Source: Psychrobacter sp. DM4 (GTDB lineage Bacteria > Pseudomonadota > Gammaproteobacteria > Pseudomonadales > Moraxellaceae). Taken from it: a stretch of 32,000 nucleotides of DNA. The translations under genes were made by a program, and so were the position numbers. The notes under the pieces are model-generated. The model made no database searches. It was not told where the DNA came from and saw only the letters and a list, made by a program, of their open reading frames with translations. The stretch lies in NCBI RefSeq assembly GCF_051307035.1, contig NZ_CP195536.1:1890001-1922000 (forward strand), written 5' to 3'. The first letter of the stretch is position 1. Each line of letters starts with the position of its first letter. Shown one piece after another: positions 2,476-23,919 of this stretch.

Positions 2476-4125
2476 TTAATCACCTTTGACGATTTTGGGA
2501 GGACCTGTTAATAGACCTTCATCAACGAACTCATTGGCCGTATTGTGATCAATGGACTCATCAGTAATATACTGCTGCTGCGCACGATAAAGGATCAAAC
2601 GATCTCGACCAAGACCACGCCATAGAGCGTACATCATAACAAAAATGACGATAGCAAAGGGTAGTCCTGCTACAATAGCCGCCGCTTGCAATGCACCAAG
2701 GCCACCTGCAGCGAGCAAAATTGCGGCAATAAACCCTTCCATCGTTGCCCAAAACAGACGCTGAATCTTTGGCGGATTGGTATCGCCGCCTGCGGTGAGC
2801 ATATCAATGACAAAGCTTGCAGAATCCGATGACGTTACAAACCACATTACAATCATAATGACAATCAATAAGGTGATCGGTTTGGCTAACGGATAATACT
2901 CAACCAACTTAAAGATGGCGCTACCTGTATCTGCTTGTACTGCCTCTATTAGTCCAGGGCTTACTAGAGCAGGATCAAGGGCAGCAAGTAGCTCCATATG
3001 AATAGCGACGCCACCAAAAGCTGTGAACCAGAAAAATAGGATAGTCATCGGTATCAGTAATACACCAAGGGTGAACTCGCGAATCGTACGACCGCGACTA
3101 ATACGAGCGATAAACACACCGACGAATGGGGCCCAACTTACCCACCATGCCCAATAAAATATCGTCCAACCACTCTGCCAATCAGTACCACTATAAGCCT
3201 CACCCCAAAAGCTTAAGGGAATAACAACGGCTAAATAATTACCGATATTTTCAAAGAAGCTATCAAAAATAAACAGGGTTGGACCTAAAATGACGATAAA
3301 GGCTAACAAAACGCCAGTCAGACCCATATTGATATCACTTAAACGCTTAATACCTTTATCAAGTCCTAGCATCAAAGAGCCACAAGCAAGCAAAGTAATA
3401 AAGGCAATGATTGCAAATTGCACACCAAGACTGTTTTGGATACCAAATAAGCTCTCAAGGCCTGAGTTGATCTGCATAACCCCTAGACCTAAGGAGGTTA
3501 CCACGCCAAACATCGTACCAAATACAGCTAAGATATCGACTGTATGACCCCAACCTCCGTAGATTCTTTGACCAAGTATAGGATACAAGGTCGATCGGAT
3601 AGAGAGCGGTAACCCACGTCTAAAGTGAAAATAAGCTAATGATAATGCCACGATAGTATAGATCGCCCATGCATGGAGTCCCCAATGCAAGAACGAGATA
3701 TTCATCGCCTGTTTAGCCGCCTCTATCGTCTCAGGCTCACCTAGTGGCGGTGCCATGTAGTGATACAAAGGCTCGGCGGTACCCCAATAGACTAGGCCGA
3801 TACCGATACCTGCTGAGAACAGCATCCCAATCCAAGATACCAAGCTATACTGTGGACGCTCTGTTTGATTACCCAAACGTATATCACCATAGCGACTCGC
3901 TATCAGGTAAATACAGAAGACCAGTGCCATATTCATCAATAATATGAAGAACCAGCCAAAGTTTGTGGTGATAAAGCTTTGTAAGAAACTAAAAAGTGCG
4001 CCTGCAGCTTCAGTAAAGAACACACCAAAAATGATAAATCCAACAATCAATATACTTGAAATAATAAAGACAGGCTTGTTGACTCTAGGAAAAGGGCCGA
4101 GCCTTTCAACTTTGACATGATCCAT
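2476..4125 (-). CDS. BCCT family transporter, copy 2 (tandem paralog)
   Basis: 549-aa ORF colinear with copy 1, with the same start 'MDHVKV.RLGPFPRV' and the same BCCT signature 'WTIFYWAWWVSWAPFVGVFIARISRGRTIREF'. Confidence 0.9.
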   Translation of the reverse strand: MDHVKVERLGPFPRVNKPVFIISSILIVGFIIFGVFFTEAAGALFSFLQSFITTNFGWFFILLMNMALVFCIYLIASRYGDIRLGNQTERPQYSLVSWIGMLFSAGIGIGLVYWGTAEPLYHYMAPPLGEPETIEAAKQAMNISFLHWGLHAWAIYTIVALSLAYFHFRRGLPLSIRSTLYPILGQRIYGGWGHTVDILAVFGTMFGVVTSLGLGVMQINSGLESLFGIQNSLGVQFAIIAFITLLACGSLMLGLDKGIKRLSDINMGLTGVLLAFIVILGPTLFIFDSFFENIGNYLAVVIPLSFWGEAYSGTDWQSGWTIFYWAWWVSWAPFVGVFIARISRGRTIREFTLGVLLIPMTILFFWFTAFGGVAIHMELLAALDPALVSPGLIEAVQADTGSAIFKLVEYYPLAKPITLLIVIMIVMWFVTSSDSASFVIDMLTAGGDTNPPKIQRLFWATMEGFIAAILLAAGGLGALQAAAIVAGLPFAIVIFVMMYALWRGLGRDRLILYRAQQQYITDESIDHNTANEFVDEGLLTGPPKIVKGD

Positions 4126-4272
4126 GTGCTAGATAACCTTAAAATTTTAGGAGGTTTACCTTAACAAGATAACGCACAACTATCAAATGTAAACCAAGCA
4201 CTTACAAGTGCTTATCGAATAGAAACAAACTCAAACCTCAACAGTTAAAAACGTTGTTTCAATATTAGCGAA

Positions 4273-4298
4273 GCTCCTACCTCTTAAAAGGTAGGAGC
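4273..4298 (-). terminator. hairpin downstream of the dehydrogenase gene (possible terminator)
   Basis: 9-bp perfect stem GCTCCTACC/GGTAGGAGC with an 8-nt loop, about 28 nt after the stop. No clear T-tract follows on the minus strand. Confidence 0.35.
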
Positions 4299-4325
4299 AA
4301 AGACATCCGGTACAATAGCGTTTAT

Positions 4326-5564
4326 TTATTGAGGCAGTAGCTGTAGTAGCCTTGCCTCATCGCCATCTTCAAGCAGCCAAACCTGACCCTCTACGGTCAA
4401 TACATTACGAATCCTTGCGCCCATGTCATAGCGATAACGCTCATTAGCATTACCTGCCGCATCCATATCGACTACGATAAGCGCTTGAGACGATAGACCA
4501 CTCATTAGGGCGTCGCCTTGCCACGCTGGAAAGTCGTTTTGACTACCTGAGGTATAGATACTCAGTGAAGAGGGTGAGATAACGGGTGTCCAAGAGACTT
4601 TGGGTGGCTCAAACTCAGGACGGGTGTCGTGATCAGGTATATCTATGCCTGAGTAATTACGTCCGTTAGAGACTACAGGCCAGCCGTAGTTATTACCCTT
4701 GGTGATCAAATTATACTCATCACCGCCACGAGGTCCCATCTCATTAGCCCACAATCTACCTGACTCATCAAACGCCATGCCAAGTACGTTGCGATGACCG
4801 GTACTCCAAAATTGGGCGCTAATATCGTTATTACTAATATAAGGATTATCATCAGGTATAGTACCATCTGGATATAATCGAATGATTTTACCTAAATTGA
4901 GACTCATGTCTTGCGCAGGTTCTTTTTCTTGACGATCGCCTGAGCTGATATACAGATAGCGTCCATCAGGCGAGAACAGCAATCTATGACTATAGTGCCC
5001 TTGCCCATCGATTTTTTTATTTTGCTGCCAGATGGTACTGATATTTTTCAGACTTGGCTTGCCCGTATCCAAATCAGTCAGCGTAGCTTTGATAACCTTT
5101 GCACCATATTTATTACTGTCAGCGCCGCTGCCGGCTTCGGCGTGACTTAGATATATAGTATTACTCGTCGCAAAATCAGGCGATAAAATAACATCTCCTA
5201 ACCCGCCTTGCCCGCCATAAGCCACCTCTGGCACACCTGTCACTTTCGTCTTGGTACCCGTCTGCGTATCGACCACAAACAGCTCCCCTGATTTTTGCGT
5301 GACCAGTAATTTAAGCGAACCATCAGCTGTTTTGGGTAGTGTAGTCATCGCCCACGGCTCGCTAAAGGTAGCCACTGCTTTGGTTGTAAACTCAGGCTCA
5401 TCTGTATTCATAGCTTTATCAGTTTGGGTGGCAGTCGCCGAATTGCTTTGCTTAGTATTATCAGTATCGACTGCTGTCGGTTCGGAGCAAGCAGCAGTGC
5501 TCAACATTAACGCGGCTATCATTACAGGCAAAGAGAGTGGCGCACTGATATATTTATTCTTCAT
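4326..5564 (-). CDS. PQQ-dependent (soluble) sugar/aldose dehydrogenase, probable lipoprotein
   Basis: GSDH/YliI-type beta-propeller motifs 'HYSHRLLFSPDGRYLYISSGD', 'GHRNVLGMAFD' and 'GGDEYNLITKGNNYGWP'. N-terminus has signal peptide plus 'LSTAAC' lipobox. I place the start at ATG 5564 because AAGGA sits 9 nt upstream; the ORF track extends to GTG 5585. Confidence 0.8.
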   Translation of the reverse strand: MKNKYISAPLSLPVMIAALMLSTAACSEPTAVDTDNTKQSNSATATQTDKAMNTDEPEFTTKAVATFSEPWAMTTLPKTADGSLKLLVTQKSGELFVVDTQTGTKTKVTGVPEVAYGGQGGLGDVILSPDFATSNTIYLSHAEAGSGADSNKYGAKVIKATLTDLDTGKPSLKNISTIWQQNKKIDGQGHYSHRLLFSPDGRYLYISSGDRQEKEPAQDMSLNLGKIIRLYPDGTIPDDNPYISNNDISAQFWSTGHRNVLGMAFDESGRLWANEMGPRGGDEYNLITKGNNYGWPVVSNGRNYSGIDIPDHDTRPEFEPPKVSWTPVISPSSLSIYTSGSQNDFPAWQGDALMSGLSSQALIVVDMDAAGNANERYRYDMGARIRNVLTVEGQVWLLEDGDEARLLQLLPQ

Positions 5565-11755: not shown

Positions 11756-12226
11756 GTGAGCAAAGCTGAAATGACTAAGAATTGTTCCATTCAAATTAAA
11801 CCATTAACTAAGGGCAATTATGCTAGTTGGTTGAGGTTGTGGCAGAACTACCTGACCTTTTATGAGACTGCTTTGTCAGCGCATATAACAGAAAATACAT
11901 GGCAAAAACTACACGATAATGAAGTACCTATTCATGGGTTTGGGGCATGGATAGACGATCAGCTATTAGGTATTGTTCATGTTATGGTACATCCTACTAC
12001 GTGGAGCGAAACTGAATCTTGTTACTTGCATGATTTGTATGTAGATAAAGGAGTGCGTGGACAAGGTGTTGGACGAGCACTAATTGAAGAAGTGTATAGT
12101 TTTGCCCGTACAAAAGACTGTAATCGTGTCTATTGGACAACGCAAGAAGGTAATACGGCATCTCGTTTACTCTATGATCAGCTAGCAATCAAAACGGATA
12201 TGGTGCAATACCGTAAAAATTTATGA
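11756..12226 (+). CDS. GNAT family N-acetyltransferase
   Basis: 156-aa ORF with acetyl-CoA motif A 'VDKGVRGQGVGRALIE'. The start is ambiguous: GTG 11756 or ATG 11771. Confidence 0.8.
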   Translation: MSKAEMTKNCSIQIKPLTKGNYASWLRLWQNYLTFYETALSAHITENTWQKLHDNEVPIHGFGAWIDDQLLGIVHVMVHPTTWSETESCYLHDLYVDKGVRGQGVGRALIEEVYSFARTKDCNRVYWTTQEGNTASRLLYDQLAIKTDMVQYRKNL

Positions 12227-17077: not shown

Positions 17078-18325
17078 TTGAAATCATTGACCCAGATACA
17101 AGCAATTTTGGCACTAGCAGACGGTACGGTATTTCGCGGTGTCAGCATAGGCAGCCAAGGTCACCGTGTCGGTGAAGTGGTCTTTAACACGGCGATGACA
17201 GGCTATCAAGAGATCCTCACAGACCCAAGCTACGCGCGCCAACTGGTTACCCTCACCTACCCGCATATCGGCAATACGGGCACCAATGATGAGGACAGTG
17301 AATCGGGCAATATTGATTTCAAACAGCAAATATGGGCAGAGGGACTCATTATTCGCGATGCGACAATGGTCACTTCAAACTTTCGCAATACTGAATCTCT
17401 GAGCGACTACCTAGAGCGTCATGACACGGTTGCTATCGCTGAGATTGATACCCGTCAACTAACGCGTCTATTACGAGAGCAAGGCGCGCAGAATGGATGT
17501 CTTATGACTGCCTCTAATGGCGAGACTATTAGTGACGCTGATGTACAGCAAGCCATTCAATTGGCAAAAGATTTTGCGGGTCTAAAAGGCATGGATCTAG
17601 CTAAAGAAGCCAGTCATCCAGAAGGCTTTGAGTGGACGGCGGGCACGTGGGAGTTATCAGATACGCTACTCAACCGTGACGCTACTGGTAGCCATGACAG
17701 CGGTACGGGCGGGTTCTATAAGCAGCTGGGCACACATATCGAGCACAAGTATAATGTGGTTGCTTATGACTTTGGTACTAAGACCAATATATTACGCATG
17801 CTCGTCGATATCGGTGCTCGTGTGACCGTCGTTCCTGCGCAGACGCCAATTAAAGACGTGCTCGCGATGAATCCAGATGGTATATTTTTATCGAATGGCC
17901 CTGGCGACCCGGCCGCTAGTGATTATGCTATTGATAATGTTCGCCATATCATCGAAGAGACGGACATTCCGACTTTTGGTATTTGCTTAGGTCATCAGCT
18001 GATTGGACTTGCCAGTGGTGCTAAGACTATGAAGATGAAAACGGGTCATCATGGCGCGAATCATCCTGTGCAAGATTTAGCGACTAGTGTCGTGATGATT
18101 ACTAGTCAGAATCATGGTTTTGCGGTCGATGAAGATACGCTACCTGACAATGTTAAATCAACACATCGCTCATTATTTGATGGTACCAATCAAGGCATTG
18201 AGCTGACTAATAAGCCCGTCTTTAGCTTCCAAGGACACCCTGAAGCGAGCCCTGGCCCGCATGATGCTGCTGAGCTATTTGCTAAGTTTGCTGGGATGAT
18301 GGAGAAAAATAAGGCGAATAGCTAA
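17078..18325 (+). CDS. carA: carbamoyl-phosphate synthase small (glutaminase) subunit
   Basis: 415-aa ORF with the class-I amidotransferase triad region 'GICLGHQL' and '[13 protein letters not shown]'. It has a TTG start with GGAGG 6 nt upstream; E. coli carA also uses UUG. Confidence 0.96.
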
Positions 18326-19473
18326 TGGCGAATCAACTTACCCAAAAGTGGAAAATTAAAGACCTAAAAGGCGTCGGCGACGTTGAATTATCACTCGATG
18401 ATAGCAAACGGGTCTTTGTGTTCTTTGGTAGTAATGGTATTGGTAAGACTAAGACGCTAGAGGCTCTACTTTACTTTTTGCTAGCGCAGAATAAAAATTT
18501 TATACCCAAAGGTCATACGTTAAAAATATCAGATAGTATTTTTCAATCAATATGTTCAAATAATTTATGTATAAATGTGAAGAACGCTTTACTAAGCGAA
18601 AGTAAAATTTATCTTCCTAACATATTTAATCAAGTCGAGGTTAAAAATTACGACTCAGTTGCTTACATAGGAGCAAAACAAAGAGGTTCATCTGAAAAAA
18701 ATAGTAACCATCGAAATAAACCTATGGGAAGTTCTGAGTCACGCAGAGACACCCATTCCGAACTTTTTGAGTTAGCTATTGTTAATGGCAATTTAGATAG
18801 ATTAGGGATGAATCAAGACATTCATCATTGGTTCATCGAGCGTGCTCAATCTGTCAACCCTTATCAAAAGTCTGACGACAATCGACAAGTTGATATCGAT
18901 ACGGTTCTTGGCGCTTTAAACACTTTAGACAATCGCATTGGTAAAGCTCTCAATGTAGATGGTGACGATAATGTTTATCTGACTATCGAAGGACAAGAAA
19001 CCGAACTAAACAATTTAAGCTCAGGCTTTATCTCAGTAGTTAAAATTATCCAAGCCATTGTCTCTGCCTACTCTGCGTTTACTAATGAACAAGACTTACT
19101 TAATGTTAAAGGTGTCGTACTTATAGATGAAATAGAAAGTCATTTGCACGTAGAATGGCAGACTAGAATCATACCAACGCTAAAAGAGCTGTTTCCAAAC
19201 ACTACCTTTTATATCGCGACTCATTCCCCCTTAGTGTTATCACAACTTAGTGAAGGTGAGGCTTATCTACTTAAACGTGATAATGACAACATAGTGCGCT
19301 CTAGTGTAATTGACTCACCTAATAAGCGTATCTTAGCCAATGTCTTACGCGATGCTTTTGGTATTGACCTAAATGAGCTTAAAAGGGAGTCTATGGAAGA
19401 CGGTAGTCAAGATGTAGCAAAAAATCGCTTGTTAAAATTGCTTAGAGACCCAGCAGGTGACACTGGTGAGTAG
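18325..19473 (+). CDS. ABC/AAA_21-like (OLD/PtuA/AriA-type) ATPase of unknown function, first gene of the inserted cassette
   Basis: 382-aa ORF. It has Walker A 'GSNGIGKT' (aa 35-42), an ABC-signature-like 'LSSG' (aa 231-234), Walker B 'VVLIDEIESHLH' (aa 264-275) and H-loop 'ATHSP' (aa 298-302). Its ATG overlaps the carA stop (TAATG). It is AT-rich relative to its flanks. Confidence 0.75.
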   Translation: MANQLTQKWKIKDLKGVGDVELSLDDSKRVFVFFGSNGIGKTKTLEALLYFLLAQNKNFIPKGHTLKISDSIFQSICSNNLCINVKNALLSESKIYLPNIFNQVEVKNYDSVAYIGAKQRGSSEKNSNHRNKPMGSSESRRDTHSELFELAIVNGNLDRLGMNQDIHHWFIERAQSVNPYQKSDDNRQVDIDTVLGALNTLDNRIGKALNVDGDDNVYLTIEGQETELNNLSSGFISVVKIIQAIVSAYSAFTNEQDLLNVKGVVLIDEIESHLHVEWQTRIIPTLKELFPNTTFYIATHSPLVLSQLSEGEAYLLKRDNDNIVRSSVIDSPNKRILANVLRDAFGIDLNELKRESMEDGSQDVAKNRLLKLLRDPAGDTGE

Positions 19474-19891
19474 ATATATTCTGCTAGATGCTAATTTACT
19501 CATTGGCGCTTTTGATCATGACTCGGAAAATACAAAGCACATTCAGTCTAAACAGATTGTTGAAGCTTTACTATTAGACGATACTGTAAAAATCGCTATT
19601 ACACCGCTAATACGTTACGAAGTACTACGCGGCGTCCGCCGCGTGCCAACTGAGCAAATGGTTGAGATATTGAACGATTTTGAAGAATTTGAGATTACTG
19701 ACGTAGAAGGCAATAGAGCTTCTGATATCTATCGCTTAGCTCTTGTAAATAATCAAAAGTTAGACAAACGTAGTTTTGATGTTTTCCACTATGTAGTCGC
19801 TGAAATACGCAATCTAGAATGGATGAGTCAAGATAACGATTTGAGTAAAATTGCAAACCTCGCCAAACCTATTATTGAAGGACAAATTTAA
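19466..19891 (+). CDS. PIN-domain (VapC-like) putative ribonuclease, second gene of the inserted cassette
   Basis: N-terminal 'YILLDANLLIGAFD' is the classic PIN beta1 motif. In ORF-track numbering, acidic residues sit at PIN-like spacing: D11, E55, D108, D126/D128. The GTG at 19466 has AGGTGA 5 nt upstream; the ORF track uses GTG 19457. It overlaps the ATPase stop by 8 nt (17 nt from 19457), and its stop TAA abuts the carB ATG. Confidence 0.65.
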   Translation: MSRYILLDANLLIGAFDHDSENTKHIQSKQIVEALLLDDTVKIAITPLIRYEVLRGVRRVPTEQMVEILNDFEEFEITDVEGNRASDIYRLALVNNQKLDKRSFDVFHYVVAEIRNLEWMSQDNDLSKIANLAKPIIEGQI

Positions 19892-22800
19892 ATGCCAAAA
19901 CGTACCGACATAAAAAGCATTCTTATCATTGGCGCCGGCCCCATCGTTATCGGTCAAGCGTGCGAGTTTGACTACTCAGGCGCACAAGCCTGTAAAGCCC
20001 TTCGCGAAGAAGGCTACCGCGTTATCTTGGTCAACTCAAACCCAGCCACCATCATGACTGACCCTGATATGGCAGATGCCACTTATATCGAGCCGATTAC
20101 TTGGCAAACAGTTGAACAGATTATCAATGTCGAGCGTCCTGATGCCATCTTGCCAACGATGGGCGGACAGACCGCACTTAACTGTGCGCTGGATTTAGAT
20201 AAGCATGGCGTGCTAGAGAAGTATGGCTGTGAGCTGATTGGCGCAACTAAAGATTCGATTGAGATGGCAGAAGATCGTGATCTATTTGATAAAGCCATGA
20301 AGCGTATCGGACTTGAATGCCCGCGTGCTGAGATTGCTGAGACCATGGAGCAGGCTTTTGCCACCCAAGAAAAGATGGGCTATCCGTGTATCATACGCCC
20401 GTCCTTTACGATGGGCGGCTCAGGCGGCGGTATCGCATATAACCGTGATGAGTTCATTGAGATTTGTGAGCGCGGTTTTGATTTATCGCCAACCCATCAA
20501 TTGCTCATTGATGAGTCTTTAATCGGTTGGAAAGAGTACGAGACTGAAGTCGTCCGTGATAAAAACGACAACTGTATCATCGTCTGTACCATTGAGAACT
20601 TTGATCCGATGGGCGTGCATACGGGTGATTCAATCACCGTTGCCCCAGCACAAACCCTAACGGATAAAGAATATCAAATCATGCGTAACGCGTCCCTCGC
20701 GGTACTACGCGAAATTGGCGTTGAGACGGGTGGCTCAAACGTGCAGTTCGGTATCAATCCAAAGACCGGTCGTATGGTCGTCATCGAGATGAACCCGCGC
20801 GTATCTCGCTCATCAGCATTGGCATCAAAAGCAACAGGTTTTCCTATTGCTCGTATCGCCGCCAAGCTTGCGATCGGCTATACGCTTGATGAACTCCAAA
20901 ACGATATTACTGGCGGTGCAACGCCTGCGAGCTTTGAGCCTACCCTCGATTATGTTGTCACCAAAATACCGCGTTTTAACTTTGAAAAGTTCCCGCAAGC
21001 GGACAATATCCTATCGACGCAGATGAAATCGGTCGGTGAAGTTATGGCGATTGGTCGTAACTTCCAAGAGTCTATGCAAAAAGCATTGCGCGGTCTTGAG
21101 ACGGGTGCAGATGGTTTTGATGAGCAAATCGACTTATCCAAGGTTAGCACAGACAAAGCTCGTAGCGAGATCACCAATCGTTTGACCATCCCAACCCCTG
21201 AGCGTATTTTTTATATCGGCGACGCCTTTCGTATCGGTATGAGCGTTAATGAGGTCTTTAAGCTCACCAACATCGACCCTTGGTTCTTGGTACAGATCGA
21301 AGATATCATCAAGACTGAAACCCAAGTGCGCGCTCTCGGTTTTGGTGGTTTAAATGAGACCAATCTGCGTGGATTTAAGCGTAAAGGTTTATCAGATCTA
21401 CGTTTGGCAAAGCTGCTTGGCGTGTCACAAAAACAGCTACGCAAAAAACGTTGGGATTTAAATATTTATCCCGTTTATAAACGCGTTGATACCGCTGCTG
21501 CTGAGTTTGCGACCAGCACCGCTTATATGTACTCAAGCTACGATAGCGAGTGCGAAGCCAATCCGACTGACAACAAGAAAATCATGGTCATCGGCGGCGG
21601 TCCGAACCGTATTGGTCAAGGTATTGAGTTTGATTATTGCTGCGTGCACGCCGCTCTTGCCATGCGCGCGGATGGTTATGAGACTATTATGGTCAACTGT
21701 AACCCTGAAACGGTCTCAACCGATTATGATACCTCAGATCGTCTCTACTTTGAACCAATTACGTTAGAAGACGTGCTTGAAATCGTCCGTATTGAACAGC
21801 CTGACGGCGTCATTGTCCAGTTCGGTGGTCAAACCCCATTGAAGCTTGCCCGCGCTTTAGAGTCAGCGGGCGTTAATATCATCGGTACGAGCCCTGATGC
21901 TATTGACCGCGCCGAAGATCGTGAACGCTTCCAGCACATGATTCATCAGCTTAACCTTGTCCAACCTTCAAATGCGCTCGCGACGAGTCTCGAGGACGGT
22001 TTGGTCAAAGCCAAAGACGTCGGCTACCCGCTAGTGGTACGCCCATCATACGTCTTAGGTGGACGCGCGATGGAAATCGTCTACAACGAAGATGAGCTCA
22101 GACATTACTTGCGTACCGCCGTACAAGCCTCAAATGAGGCGCCTGTGCTGCTTGATCGCTTCTTGGATGATGCTATAGAAGTCGATGTTGATTGCGTTAG
22201 TGATGGCACCGATGTGGTCATCGGCGGCATCATGCAGCATATCGAACAGGCGGGCGTGCACTCTGGCGATTCAGCATGTTCATTGCCGCCTTACTCGCTA
22301 TCAGATGAGCTGTGTGATGTCATGCGCGAGCAAACCATTGCCATGGCAAAAGAGCTTGGCGTTATTGGACTTATGAACGTTCAGTTCGCAGTCAAAGGTG
22401 AAACGGTTTATATATTAGAAGTCAATCCACGGGCCGCGCGTACCGTACCTTTTGTCTCCAAGTGTATCGGTACTTCGCTTGCGCAGATTGCAGCGCGCTG
22501 TATGGCGGGCACGTCACTCAAAGATCAGGGGTTTATGACTGAGATTGTACCGTCTTTCTTTGCCGTAAAAGAGTCCGTATTTCCCTTTGCCAAGTTCCCA
22601 GGCGTTGACCCAATCTTGAGTCCTGAGATGAAATCAACGGGTGAAGTCATGGGTATCGGCAAAACCTTTGGCGAGGCTTTTTATAAAGCGGTCATCGGTA
22701 GTAATGAGCGCTTGCCTGGTCTGCCAACTGATGGCGAAAGCAAAACGGTCTTTATCTCCGTACGCGATAGCGACAAAACGCAAATCGCGCCTATTGCCCG

Positions 22801-23146
22801 CCAGCTTATTGATTACGGCTTTGATATCGTGGCGACCACTGGCACGCAAAAGGTGCTCGCAGATGCCGGTATCGACTGTCAGCAAATCAATAAAGTCACA
22901 GAGGGTCGCCCGCATATCGTCGATGCCTTGAAAAACGGTAAAATCGACCTTATTATTAATACGACTGAAGGCAAGCAAGCACAAGAAGATTCGTTCTCTA
23001 TTCGTCGCAGTGCTTTGCAAGGCAAGGTGTTTTATGTGACCACTTTAGGCGCGGCCGATGCGGTCTGTAAATCTTATGCCATTGACTTGCCCTTCGATGT
23101 TTATAAGCTACAAGACTTGCATGCGCAGGCTAAGCCTATCGCTTAG
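19892..23146 (+). CDS. carB: carbamoyl-phosphate synthase large subunit
   Basis: 1084-aa ORF with duplicated ATP-grasp halves ('[21 protein letters not shown]' / '[20 protein letters not shown]') and a C-terminal MGS-like allosteric domain. Confidence 0.98.
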
Positions 23147-23442: not shown

Positions 23443-23919
23443 ATGCAACGCTACCCTATGACTCCAGAAGGACATGCCGCTTTAGAAAGCGAGCTTAAGC
23501 AGCTAAAAACTGTCGATCGTCCTCGTATCACAGCTTCTATCGCTGAAGCGCGCGAACATGGCGATCTAAAAGAAAACGCTGAATATCATGCCGCACGTGA
23601 ACAACAAGGTTTTTGTGAGGCACGTATTCGCGACATCGAAGCCAAACTTGGCGGCGCACAAGTAATAGACATATCGACCTTAAAGCAAGAAGGCCGCGTA
23701 GTGTTTGGTGTGACTGTGGTCATTGAGAACATGGATACCGAAGAAGAAAAGCGTTACCAGATCGTCGGCGACGATGAGGCGGACTTTAAAGCGGGTAAAA
23801 TATCTGTCAATTCGCCTATCGCGCGTGGCCTAATTGGCAAGTCTGAAGGGGATGAGGCGCGAATTGAGACGCCAAAAGGCGTGGTTGAATATGAAGTGAT
23901 GAAAGTCATTTATCACTAG
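23443..23919 (+). CDS. greA: transcription elongation factor GreA
   Basis: 158-aa ORF. 'MT.EG...L..EL..LK...RP.I...[20 protein letters not shown]' is the canonical GreA N-terminal coiled coil. Its position after carB is the conserved gammaproteobacterial order. Confidence 0.96.

Follow-up and report, generated by a model that had tools for sequence, protein, structure and literature searches.

A candidate two-gene defence module, a PtuA-like ATPase and a PIN nuclease, between carA and carB of Psychrobacter sp. DM4

In Psychrobacter sp. DM4, the genes that encode the small subunit and the large subunit of carbamoyl-phosphate synthase, carA and carB, are separated by two further genes on the same strand, and the question is what this pair does and how it came to lie inside a core biosynthetic operon. 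The locus was analysed within a stretch of 32,000 nucleotides (nt) of the DM4 genome, called the window here; the features of the DM4 carA-to-greA locus given below are on the plus strand, and positions are window positions unless a locus label (L with a number) is given. A preliminary description of this DNA had taken the cassette for a horizontally acquired insert that depends on carAB expression. We replace the recent horizontal insert by a different picture, in which the pair appears to be an old, dispensable, fast-evolving and defence-like resident of an intra-operon slot. With moderate confidence, we interpret the pair as a two-gene anti-phage abortive-infection module similar to Septu, PARIS and HEC-03, which would be expressed from the carAB transcript and whose alleles would be exchanged via the flanks.

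The first gene of the cassette (18325..19473) encodes an ABC ATPase of 382 amino acids (aa), the proposed sensor and regulator. Pfam searches assigned AAA_21 (1e-14) and AAA_15 (3e-13), and the PADLOC PtuA models matched over nearly the full length (5e-36). In a PDB search with a profile of 17 homologues, the best matches were PtuA of Septu and of retrons Ec78/Ec83 (2e-21). The AlphaFold (AF2) model of the protein (pLDDT 82, pTM 0.81) was searched with Foldseek, and PtuA chains of Septu and retron Ec78/Ec83 were at the top (E 6e-17, TM 0.55-0.66). The score against the NCBIfam PtuA equivalog NF041760 was 102 bits at a cut-off of 500; judged by these profiles, the ATPase is a relative of PtuA and not an equivalog. 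The Walker A motif GSNGIGKT (residues 35-42, 18427..18450) has G35, N37, G38, G40, K41 and T42 invariant in alignment A1, and the ABC signature LSSGF (residues 231-235, 19015..19029) and the H-loop are also invariant there. The Walker B motif and D-loop, VVLIDEIESHLH (residues 264-275, 19114..19149), belong to a segment, G263 and V265-H275, that for the most part shows no variation in A1. An exhaustive search collected 72 clusters (50% identity) at E ≤1e-30, against 13,752 weak ABC matches, and by these counts the family is compact.

The second gene (19466..19891) encodes a PIN nuclease of 141 aa (Pfam PIN, PF01850, 2e-11), the proposed RNase effector. Its D8, E52, D105 and D125, which form the D-E-D-D tetrad, are invariant across 19 homologues (alignment A3), and the motifs of both proteins are intact. 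The NCBI annotation names the protein a VapC-family toxin. The PIN domain and its four canonical acidic residues are as in VapBC systems, but the score against the NCBIfam VapC model is below its cut-off, and the gene upstream of the DM4 PIN encodes the 382-aa ATPase and not VapB; no VapB antitoxin was found, and no further open reading frame (ORF) fits between carA and PIN. There are signs, at the sequence level, of PIN gene decay in some carriers. The PIN gene of L104:7131-7757 is called as two short ORFs, yet a 144-aa PIN can be translated from it, and the call at L105:7131-7565 is intact. At L110:3723-4028, a 101-aa C-terminal part of PIN is left beside an intact ATPase gene.

The cassette is fitted between its neighbours with no spare nucleotides. 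The upstream flank, carA (17078..18325; Pfam CPSase_sm_chain 3e-50, GATase 2e-51), is conserved, with 85-88% identity to carA of other Psychrobacter, and its stop codon overlaps the ATPase start by 1 nt in TAATG (18323..18327), where the final A of the carA TAA is the A of the ATPase ATG. The ATPase and PIN frames overlap by 8 nt if PIN starts at GTG 19466, or by 17 nt if it starts at GTG 19457, which would give a 144-aa protein; the genes as called in homologous loci point to the shorter overlap of 8 nt and to a PIN of 141 aa. At the other end, TAAATG (19889..19894) joins the PIN stop (TAA, 19889-19891) directly to the ATG of carB at 19892, and the likely carB ribosome-binding site GAAGGA (19877..19882) lies within the last PIN codons, 9 nt upstream of that ATG. 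Psychrobacter loci with an empty slot have GAAGGT 13 nt upstream of carB. Both the 1-nt overlap and the zero-spacer junction are kept in L081, L085, L089 and L096, which are all the cassette-bearing Psychrobacter loci. The downstream flank, carB (19892..23146), is 93-94% identical to carB of other Psychrobacter. It is followed by greA (23443..23919; Pfam GreA_GreB_N 6e-31, GreA_GreB 2e-28), the usual last member of carA-(x)-carB-greA; nearly all related loci likewise have greA after carB, and the layout of same-strand embedded genes between carA and carB with greA downstream is present in DM4 and 14 related loci. The coordinates and junctions of the preliminary description, including the 8-17 nt overlap, were exact. 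As a separate observation, a 13-nt near-repeat, TATCGAAGGACAA / TATTGAAGGACAA, occurs at 18984-18996 in the ATPase gene and at 19873-19885 at the PIN 3' end; the latter copy includes the putative carB ribosome-binding site, and the near-repeat is probably due to chance.

Signals for independent expression were also searched for. No terminator-like sites were found between carA and carB, promoter-like sites were not above chance, and an Rfam scan of the whole window for leader or regulatory RNA and tRNA returned nothing at gathering scores. Concerning the earlier claim of dependence on carAB, the cassette is without a detectable promoter or terminator of its own and its placement fits translational coupling; from this we infer co-transcription with carAB. 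A precedent is available in Xanthomonas citri, where carA-orf-carB-greA-rpfE is co-transcribed according to reverse transcription PCR (RT-PCR), with an uncharacterised embedded ORF of 444 bp that overlaps carA by 1 base (PMC4619228). This operon is repressed by uracil, arginine and glutamate, as determined by GUS fusion and RT-PCR (PMC4619228). The X. citri ORF and the DM4 cassette are alike in junction, strand and the 1-base overlap with the carA stop, and unlike in cargo. A carA-orf-carB-greA operon of Pseudomonas aeruginosa is attributed to Lu et al. 1997 as cited in PMC4619228.

The pairing and its site are conserved far beyond DM4. Contexts were looked up for ATPase homologues from 87% down to 45% identity, and carA-ATPase-PIN-carB was found in 12 of 12 look-ups and in the independently found metagenome contigs L106 and L107, giving 14 independent lineages at ATPase identity of at least 45%. 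The carriers are several Psychrobacter, two Moraxella-like metagenome lineages, Moraxella sp., M. bovis, Xanthomonas nasturtii, X. arboricola (whose PIN, with the ATPase upstream of it, has 147 aa and a gene of 444 bp, the length of the X. citri ORF), Kushneria aurantia, Ramlibacter sp. and an unplaced metagenome-assembled genome (MAG) labelled Cytophagales. They span Moraxellaceae, Xanthomonadaceae, Halomonadaceae and Comamonadaceae, in the Beta- and Gammaproteobacteria, and the two genes are always on the same strand with little or no spacer. The names of PIN homologues alone suggest extra carriers among other Xanthomonas, Acidovorax, Paracidovorax, Xylophilus, Vandammella and Azoarcus. More distant relatives (ATPase identity 39-42%) keep the ATPase with a PIN and are located outside carAB. 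One such pair lies between nuoL and nuoM of the nuo operon in a Neisseria-like contig (L109:4971-6610) and in N. gonorrhoeae (L156:6971-8608; NZ_CP119142.1, which PLSDB lists as a plasmid although it is a chromosome), with ATPase identity of 39-41%, and another adjoins a class II amidotransferase gene. Several copies of the Neisseria DNA uptake sequence, either GCCGTCTGAA or the complement, flank the N. gonorrhoeae nuo cassette. The ATPase gene of this cassette is frameshifted and its PIN gene has a premature stop, so both are pseudogenes; because both genes are broken, this relative was uninformative as a test of whether PIN is tolerated without the ATPase.

The pair is widespread in the genus but not universal. 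Five other Psychrobacter species lack it: three have an empty slot with a spacer of 165-168 nt, one has an Mrr gene and one has an unknown gene. The two genes of the cassette are accessory. In a tree of carA plus carB, the ATPase-PIN pair is on all major Psychrobacter and Moraxella branches, and one Psychrobacter subclade combines a carrier with three members whose slot is empty, one with Mrr and one with an unknown gene. The simplest reading of this tree would be long residence of the pair in the slot with occasional loss or replacement. According to the preliminary description, an ancestral operon member would be indicated if all relatives carried the pair at a composition like that of the host. 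Many relatives carry the pair, though not all of them, and its composition tracks that of the host without matching it.

Base composition had been given as a sign of foreign origin, and the five 60-nt G+C counts given for it (17, 15, 21, 32 and 33 of 60) were reproduced exactly. The cassette has a G+C of 0.371 and a third-codon-position G+C (GC3) of 0.30-0.31, against 0.479/0.45 for carA, 0.490/0.51 for carB and a G+C of 0.443 for the whole window. Among 23 other large ORFs of the window, one is as low as the cassette, namely a GNAT acetyltransferase gene (11756-12226; G+C 0.39, GC3 0.31), which may be another accessory gene. Across hosts, cassette G+C is 0.29-0.37 in Moraxellaceae, 0.42 in a host of 0.51-0.54, 0.52 in Xanthomonas and 0.59 in Ramlibacter, and it is always 7-19 points under the carA and carB of its host. 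Because cassette G+C tracks the host with a steady deficit, the dip belongs to the module as such and does not mark a recent arrival. The identities of the ATPase core and of PIN are correlated with carB identity (Spearman 0.76 and 0.61), which is also counted for long residence; the identity pairs are phylogenetically non-independent, and these correlations are therefore descriptive only.

These results bear directly on the explanation of a recent one-off horizontal islet that landed between carA and carB by chance and rides on carAB expression. It would account for G+C and GC3 being lower in the cassette than in its flanks, for the absence of the pair from five Psychrobacter species and for the undetected promoter and terminator. 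However, the same junction is occupied in 14 lineages of at least four families and two classes, the cassette G+C is adjusted to each host, and TAATG and TAAATG are kept in Psychrobacter even though ATPase identity between the alleles is only 58-87%. The explanation is largely refuted by this distribution, and we leave it only a slim chance. Of the earlier claim of horizontal acquisition, the accessory and dispensable nature of the genes stood, and the one-off recent arrival did not.

The pair is also highly variable: the locus is a hyperpolymorphic mosaic between conserved flanks. Between L081 and L085, identity is 100% in carB, 98% in carA, 95% in the ATPase core and 100% in PIN, but 33% in ATPase residues 48-158. 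The corresponding values for L093 and L107 are 99% (carB), 98% (carA), 75% (ATPase core), 53% (PIN) and 18% (residues 48-158), and those for X. nasturtii and X. arboricola are 98%, 94%, 67%, 52% and 31%. Residues 48-158 are thus at 18-33% identity where carB is at 98-100%, and at 18-38% where carB is at 93-100%. Sliding DNA identity of L081 against L085 shows a divergent block of ~500 nt with sharp edges inside the ATPase gene. Between L093 and L107, identity drops sharply in an early part of the ATPase gene and is restored precisely at the carB ATG; in the Xanthomonas pair the sharp drop lies at the carA 3' end, and the restoration is again precisely at the carB ATG.

The variation is structured along the ATPase. 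Residues 1-47 and 256-320, which hold the catalytic motifs, are conserved between alleles (72-100% for 256-320), whereas residues 48-255 are variable. The hypervariable insert at residues ~48-158 (18466..18798), the proposed trigger-recognition region, is the stretch of lowest G+C in the cassette, and in the AF2 model it is beta-rich and follows helix 1. The C-terminal region, residues 321-382 (19285..19470), is the proposed PIN-docking region; its identity follows that of PIN and not that of the ATPase core (C-terminal region/PIN identity of 91/88 for mg107 against Moraxella sp. and 72/53 for mg93 against mg107). The PIN proteins of L107 and Moraxella sp. share 88% identity, with an ATPase core identity of 78%, and for L093 against the same Moraxella sp. 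the ATPase core reaches 87% and PIN 52%; on these identities, ATPase and PIN alleles are shuffled independently. Such a pattern would be expected if a specificity domain were under diversifying selection and homologous recombination via conserved flanks exchanged the alleles. Because the pair occupies this slot in many proteobacteria, yet alleles differ sharply among close relatives, the pair is best described as an old and fast-evolving resident, not a recent one-off.

A mechanism for such a module can be proposed from these regions and from related systems. An ATPase oligomer would hold the PIN protein through the ATPase C-terminal region, much as PtuB is bound by the C-terminal domain of PtuA, and the hypervariable insert would recognise a phage-derived trigger. 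ATP binding or hydrolysis would then activate or release PIN, which would cut tRNA, rRNA or mRNA and halt translation in the infected cell; tRNA is a likely target by analogy with the PtuAB of retron Eco7 and with PARIS. Expression would come from a single transcript from the carA promoter, carA-ATPase-PIN-carB-greA, as suggested by the anatomy and the X. citri precedent, and in Psychrobacter translation would be coupled at TAATG and handed over to carB at TAAATG. New alleles and other cargo such as Mrr would enter by homologous recombination through the carA 3' and carB 5' ends.

The closest known systems share some parts of this arrangement and lack others. Septu (PtuAB) is like the DM4 pair in its PtuA-type ATPase, as judged by hidden Markov models, PDB profile and predicted fold, in the order of ATPase gene and small nuclease gene, and in the overlapping frames. 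The C-terminal domain of PtuA binds PtuB (PMC12065111), and PMC12673091 reports that the PtuAB of retron Eco7 degrades tRNA-Tyr on infection. Septu includes the PtuAB effectors of retrons Ec78/Eco7 and Ec83; the DM4 pair is without a retron and is embedded in carAB. In PARIS, the AriA ABC ATPase scaffold holds a nuclease, the TOPRIM protein AriB, until a phage trigger, and the released AriB cuts tRNA, which makes this system a mechanistic template. Membership in PARIS was rejected, with an AriA match in the PDB profile search of E 0.002 over 42 residues and no TOPRIM or DUF4435 effector. Membership in Gabija/OLD was also rejected, since GajA matched only in the N-terminal ATPase part (E 3e-5) and neither a TOPRIM domain nor a helicase gene was found.

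HEC-03 consists of an ABC ATPase and a VapC-like PIN; it protects E. coli against phage only with both genes and is toxic when induced (bioRxiv 10.1101/2024.01.29.577857). Its domain content and order, ABC ATPase and then PIN, are those of the DM4 pair, and HEC-03 is the best functional precedent. However, HEC-03A is a 461-aa ATPase of the DUF3696 type, and HEC-03 sits in Hma defence systems and not in a metabolic operon. PADLOC-DB 2.0.0 is without HEC models. Assignment to the same family was rejected, as hhalign gave a probability of 45% over 48 columns round Walker B and BLASTP of PIN against HEC-03B gave E = 0.49. HEC-03 is not detectably homologous, and the DM4 pair therefore combines the same parts either independently or through a very distant relationship. 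We regard the protein pair as a variant within the ABC ATPase plus nuclease defence systems, in which a PtuA-like ATPase with a PIN is a candidate new combination.

The toxicity of HEC-03 on induction would also suit a selfish, toxin-antitoxin-like addiction module of no benefit to the host, with PIN as toxin and the ATPase as its restraint; embedding in the operon would give transcription and make imprecise deletion costly. The VapC-family name of the PIN protein agrees with this, as do the zero-spacer junctions, at which a sloppy deletion would harm carA or carB, and the position of the distant Neisseria relatives within another core operon, between nuoL and nuoM. Against these points, a VapB-type antitoxin is absent, clean losses and replacements have occurred in Psychrobacter, and the two N. 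gonorrhoeae genes have decayed together. Simple addiction accounts less well for the hypervariable insert and for the shuffling of alleles than would selection imposed by an external target that changes. We consider the addiction module unlikely, though deserving of attention, and keep to the abortive-infection module.

Support for the defence interpretation comes from the other occupants of the junction. Among 79 carAB loci from other genomes in which both genes were found, the gap between carA and carB is 1-200 nt in most. The empty-slot Psychrobacter spacers (L001:7228-7395, L002:6641-6805, L005:7228-7395) are conserved among each other, and they carry a short hairpin, AACGCC-ATGA-GCGTT, which is not followed by a T-run. 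Cassette remnants in them were rejected, because in the comparison of these three spacers with the cassette ends convincing similarity was found only at the carA and carB ends. In Psychrobacter glacincola, the slot holds an Mrr type IV restriction enzyme gene (L004:7236-8195; PADLOC 7e-67; G+C 0.36), and in Psychrobacter sp. 5A.1 a 183-aa ORF with no Pfam or PADLOC match (L003:4947-5498; G+C 0.30); both start 0-2 nt from the carA stop (TAAagATG or a GTGA overlap). Further cargo comprises a PD-(D/E)XK_3 protein in a Thiodiazotropha MAG (L053:7184-7579), an ORF6N protein in a Polaromonas MAG (L067:7136-7729), a LysE-type transporter in P. oryzihabitans (L020:7147-7803) and in Aquitalea, and a DUF2059-like protein and an unknown protein in Lysobacter and Pseudoxanthomonas; the locus labels for Aquitalea, Lysobacter and Pseudoxanthomonas are among L041, L049 and L070.

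A second two-gene cargo was found in Moraxella sp. beside ATPase-PIN, a phosphoribosyltransferase (PRTase) with a 187-aa protein (L095:4621-5757; PADLOC PsyrT 3e-22, ShosT 3e-12). In N. gonorrhoeae, a PRTase gene and a 182-aa gene (L157:4880-5994) end 6 nt before carB, and the proteins of the two modules are 48% and 52% identical between Moraxella and N. gonorrhoeae. The ~185-aa partner has a faint SLOG/YAcAr match, and from these matches the pair looks like a ShosTA-type toxin-antitoxin or defence pair. The whole N. gonorrhoeae spacer (L157:2715-6000) is 3.3 kb long and also contains three 281-nt tandem repeats (3784-4626), a DUF559 protein (3310-3699) and a glyoxalase-family fragment (2768-3052). 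Neither the LysE-type transporter of the Pseudomonas and Aquitalea slots nor the N. gonorrhoeae set of repeats, DUF559 and PRTase pair is an ATPase-PIN pair. The statement in the preliminary description that the junction is variable elsewhere was correct, as seen from the P. aeruginosa ORF (cited in PMC4619228), P. oryzihabitans and N. gonorrhoeae. The presence of Mrr, the ShosT/PsyrT-like PRTase pair, PD-(D/E)XK and DUF559 in the slot is counted for the defence reading.

Several unrelated cargo genes at one junction, and the use of one site in distant taxa, could also be produced by a site-specific mobile element aimed at the carA-carB junction by an unrecognised mechanism. However, neither a recombinase, integrase or transposase nor a terminal repeat or target duplication was found at the cassette, both of whose ORFs are assigned, and it contains no spare non-coding DNA. 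A repeat search of 17900-20400 gave no inverted repeats and only direct repeats of 13-25 nt at chance level, none of them flanking or att-like, in agreement with the preliminary description. The empty-site spacers show no cassette-related scar. Phage and plasmid copies were not found either: the viral_contigs scan returned nothing closer than remote ABC ATPases (full-length identity ≤27%), INPHARED phages gave only partial matches at ~30% identity, and PLSDB plasmids only remote matches besides the misfiled N. gonorrhoeae chromosome. A mobile element of this kind seems to us highly improbable, and exchange of the module through the flanks is preferred.

Certain points weigh against the abortive-infection module itself. 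Close homologues were missing from phages (viral_contigs, INPHARED) and plasmids (PLSDB), and none was observed in a classical defence island, which is uncommon for a defence system. The DM4 ATPase, at 382 aa, is ~100-170 aa shorter than the solved PtuA chains of 456-552 aa, and its partner is a PIN, whereas that of Septu is the PtuB HNH nuclease; no HNH match to the DM4 neighbour was found with Pfam or PADLOC. The PIN protein scores 22 bits against the NCBIfam VapC NF047959, whose cut-off is 80, and because of this low score its substrate is not readable from homology. The context sample of 14 lineages is small and was selected for long contigs. Finally, strict linkage to one housekeeping operon could mean that the pair has a role in carbamoyl-phosphate or pyrimidine metabolism.

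This last point leads to the explanation of the pair as a housekeeping accessory of carAB, for example in processing of the carAB-greA transcript or in linking the output of carbamoyl-phosphate synthase to nucleotide levels. The carA|carB linkage is strict and ancient, the X. citri and P. aeruginosa operons hold co-transcribed embedded ORFs, and the pair has broadly diverged together with carB, as seen in the descriptive correlations given above. However, a carAB accessory would not be expected to be patchy even within one genus, to give way to a restriction enzyme or to nothing, or to show extreme allele diversity among near-identical hosts. Acinetobacter and Pseudomonas lack the pair, as do most of the 80 sampled carAB loci, related pairs occur in unrelated contexts, and the nearest relatives of the ATPase are defence ATPases. 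A housekeeping role is thus very unlikely in our estimate, and the defence module remains the preferred explanation.

Three ideas may explain why such a module would lie here. Conserved flanks would ease allele exchange, which the breakpoint pattern supports. Embedding would give transcription and guard against sloppy deletion, and the zero-spacer junctions and the nuoL|nuoM location fit this. The third idea, a link of dose to nucleotide and arginine status, is speculative. We tentatively extend these ideas to a wider proposal that may well prove wrong, namely that an intra-operon slot for immune genes is conserved at carA|carB, and perhaps at further junctions within core operons such as nuoL|nuoM in Neisseria. 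Promoterless modules (ATPase-PIN, the ShosT-like PRTase pair, Mrr, small nucleases) would be housed there at a dose set by an operon responsive to the supply of pyrimidines, purines and arginine, so that nucleotide drain by a phage would raise immunity, and the conserved flanks would serve as recombination handles between strains and species.

Defence genes are usually sought in islands beside mobile elements. A likely immune pair that has long resided in a core biosynthetic operon in two proteobacterial classes, with arms-race-like diversification, would be a blind spot for discovery of defence genes by neighbourhood, and if the slot reading is true, such sites would form a class of defence hotspot distinct from islands borne by mobile elements. 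The location would have consequences for the host as well: expression would follow nucleotide and arginine status, and a polar mutation or activation of the module could affect carB. The conserved flanks would offer a simple route of allele exchange by transformation. For the PtuA-like ATPase with its PIN, the specificity region is naturally mapped to residues 48-158 (loosely to ~255) and would be suited to trigger swaps. The slot would also offer a common explanation for embedded carAB ORFs and spacers reported piecemeal since the 1990s in Pseudomonas, Xanthomonas and Neisseria. The reports on P. aeruginosa, X. citri and Neisseria contain no ATPase-PIN pair and do not treat the junction as a shared slot, and no paper on an ATPase-PIN pair in carAB was found in the searchable literature; as far as this literature shows, neither the conserved embedding in carAB nor the pattern of a shared slot has been described.

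One minor observation concerns the downstream end of the operon. In Moraxella bovis, a cpYpsA gene of the SLOG family (L097:10808-11302) directly follows carB, at the usual position of greA; SLOG proteins are often tied to nucleotide-based conflict systems.

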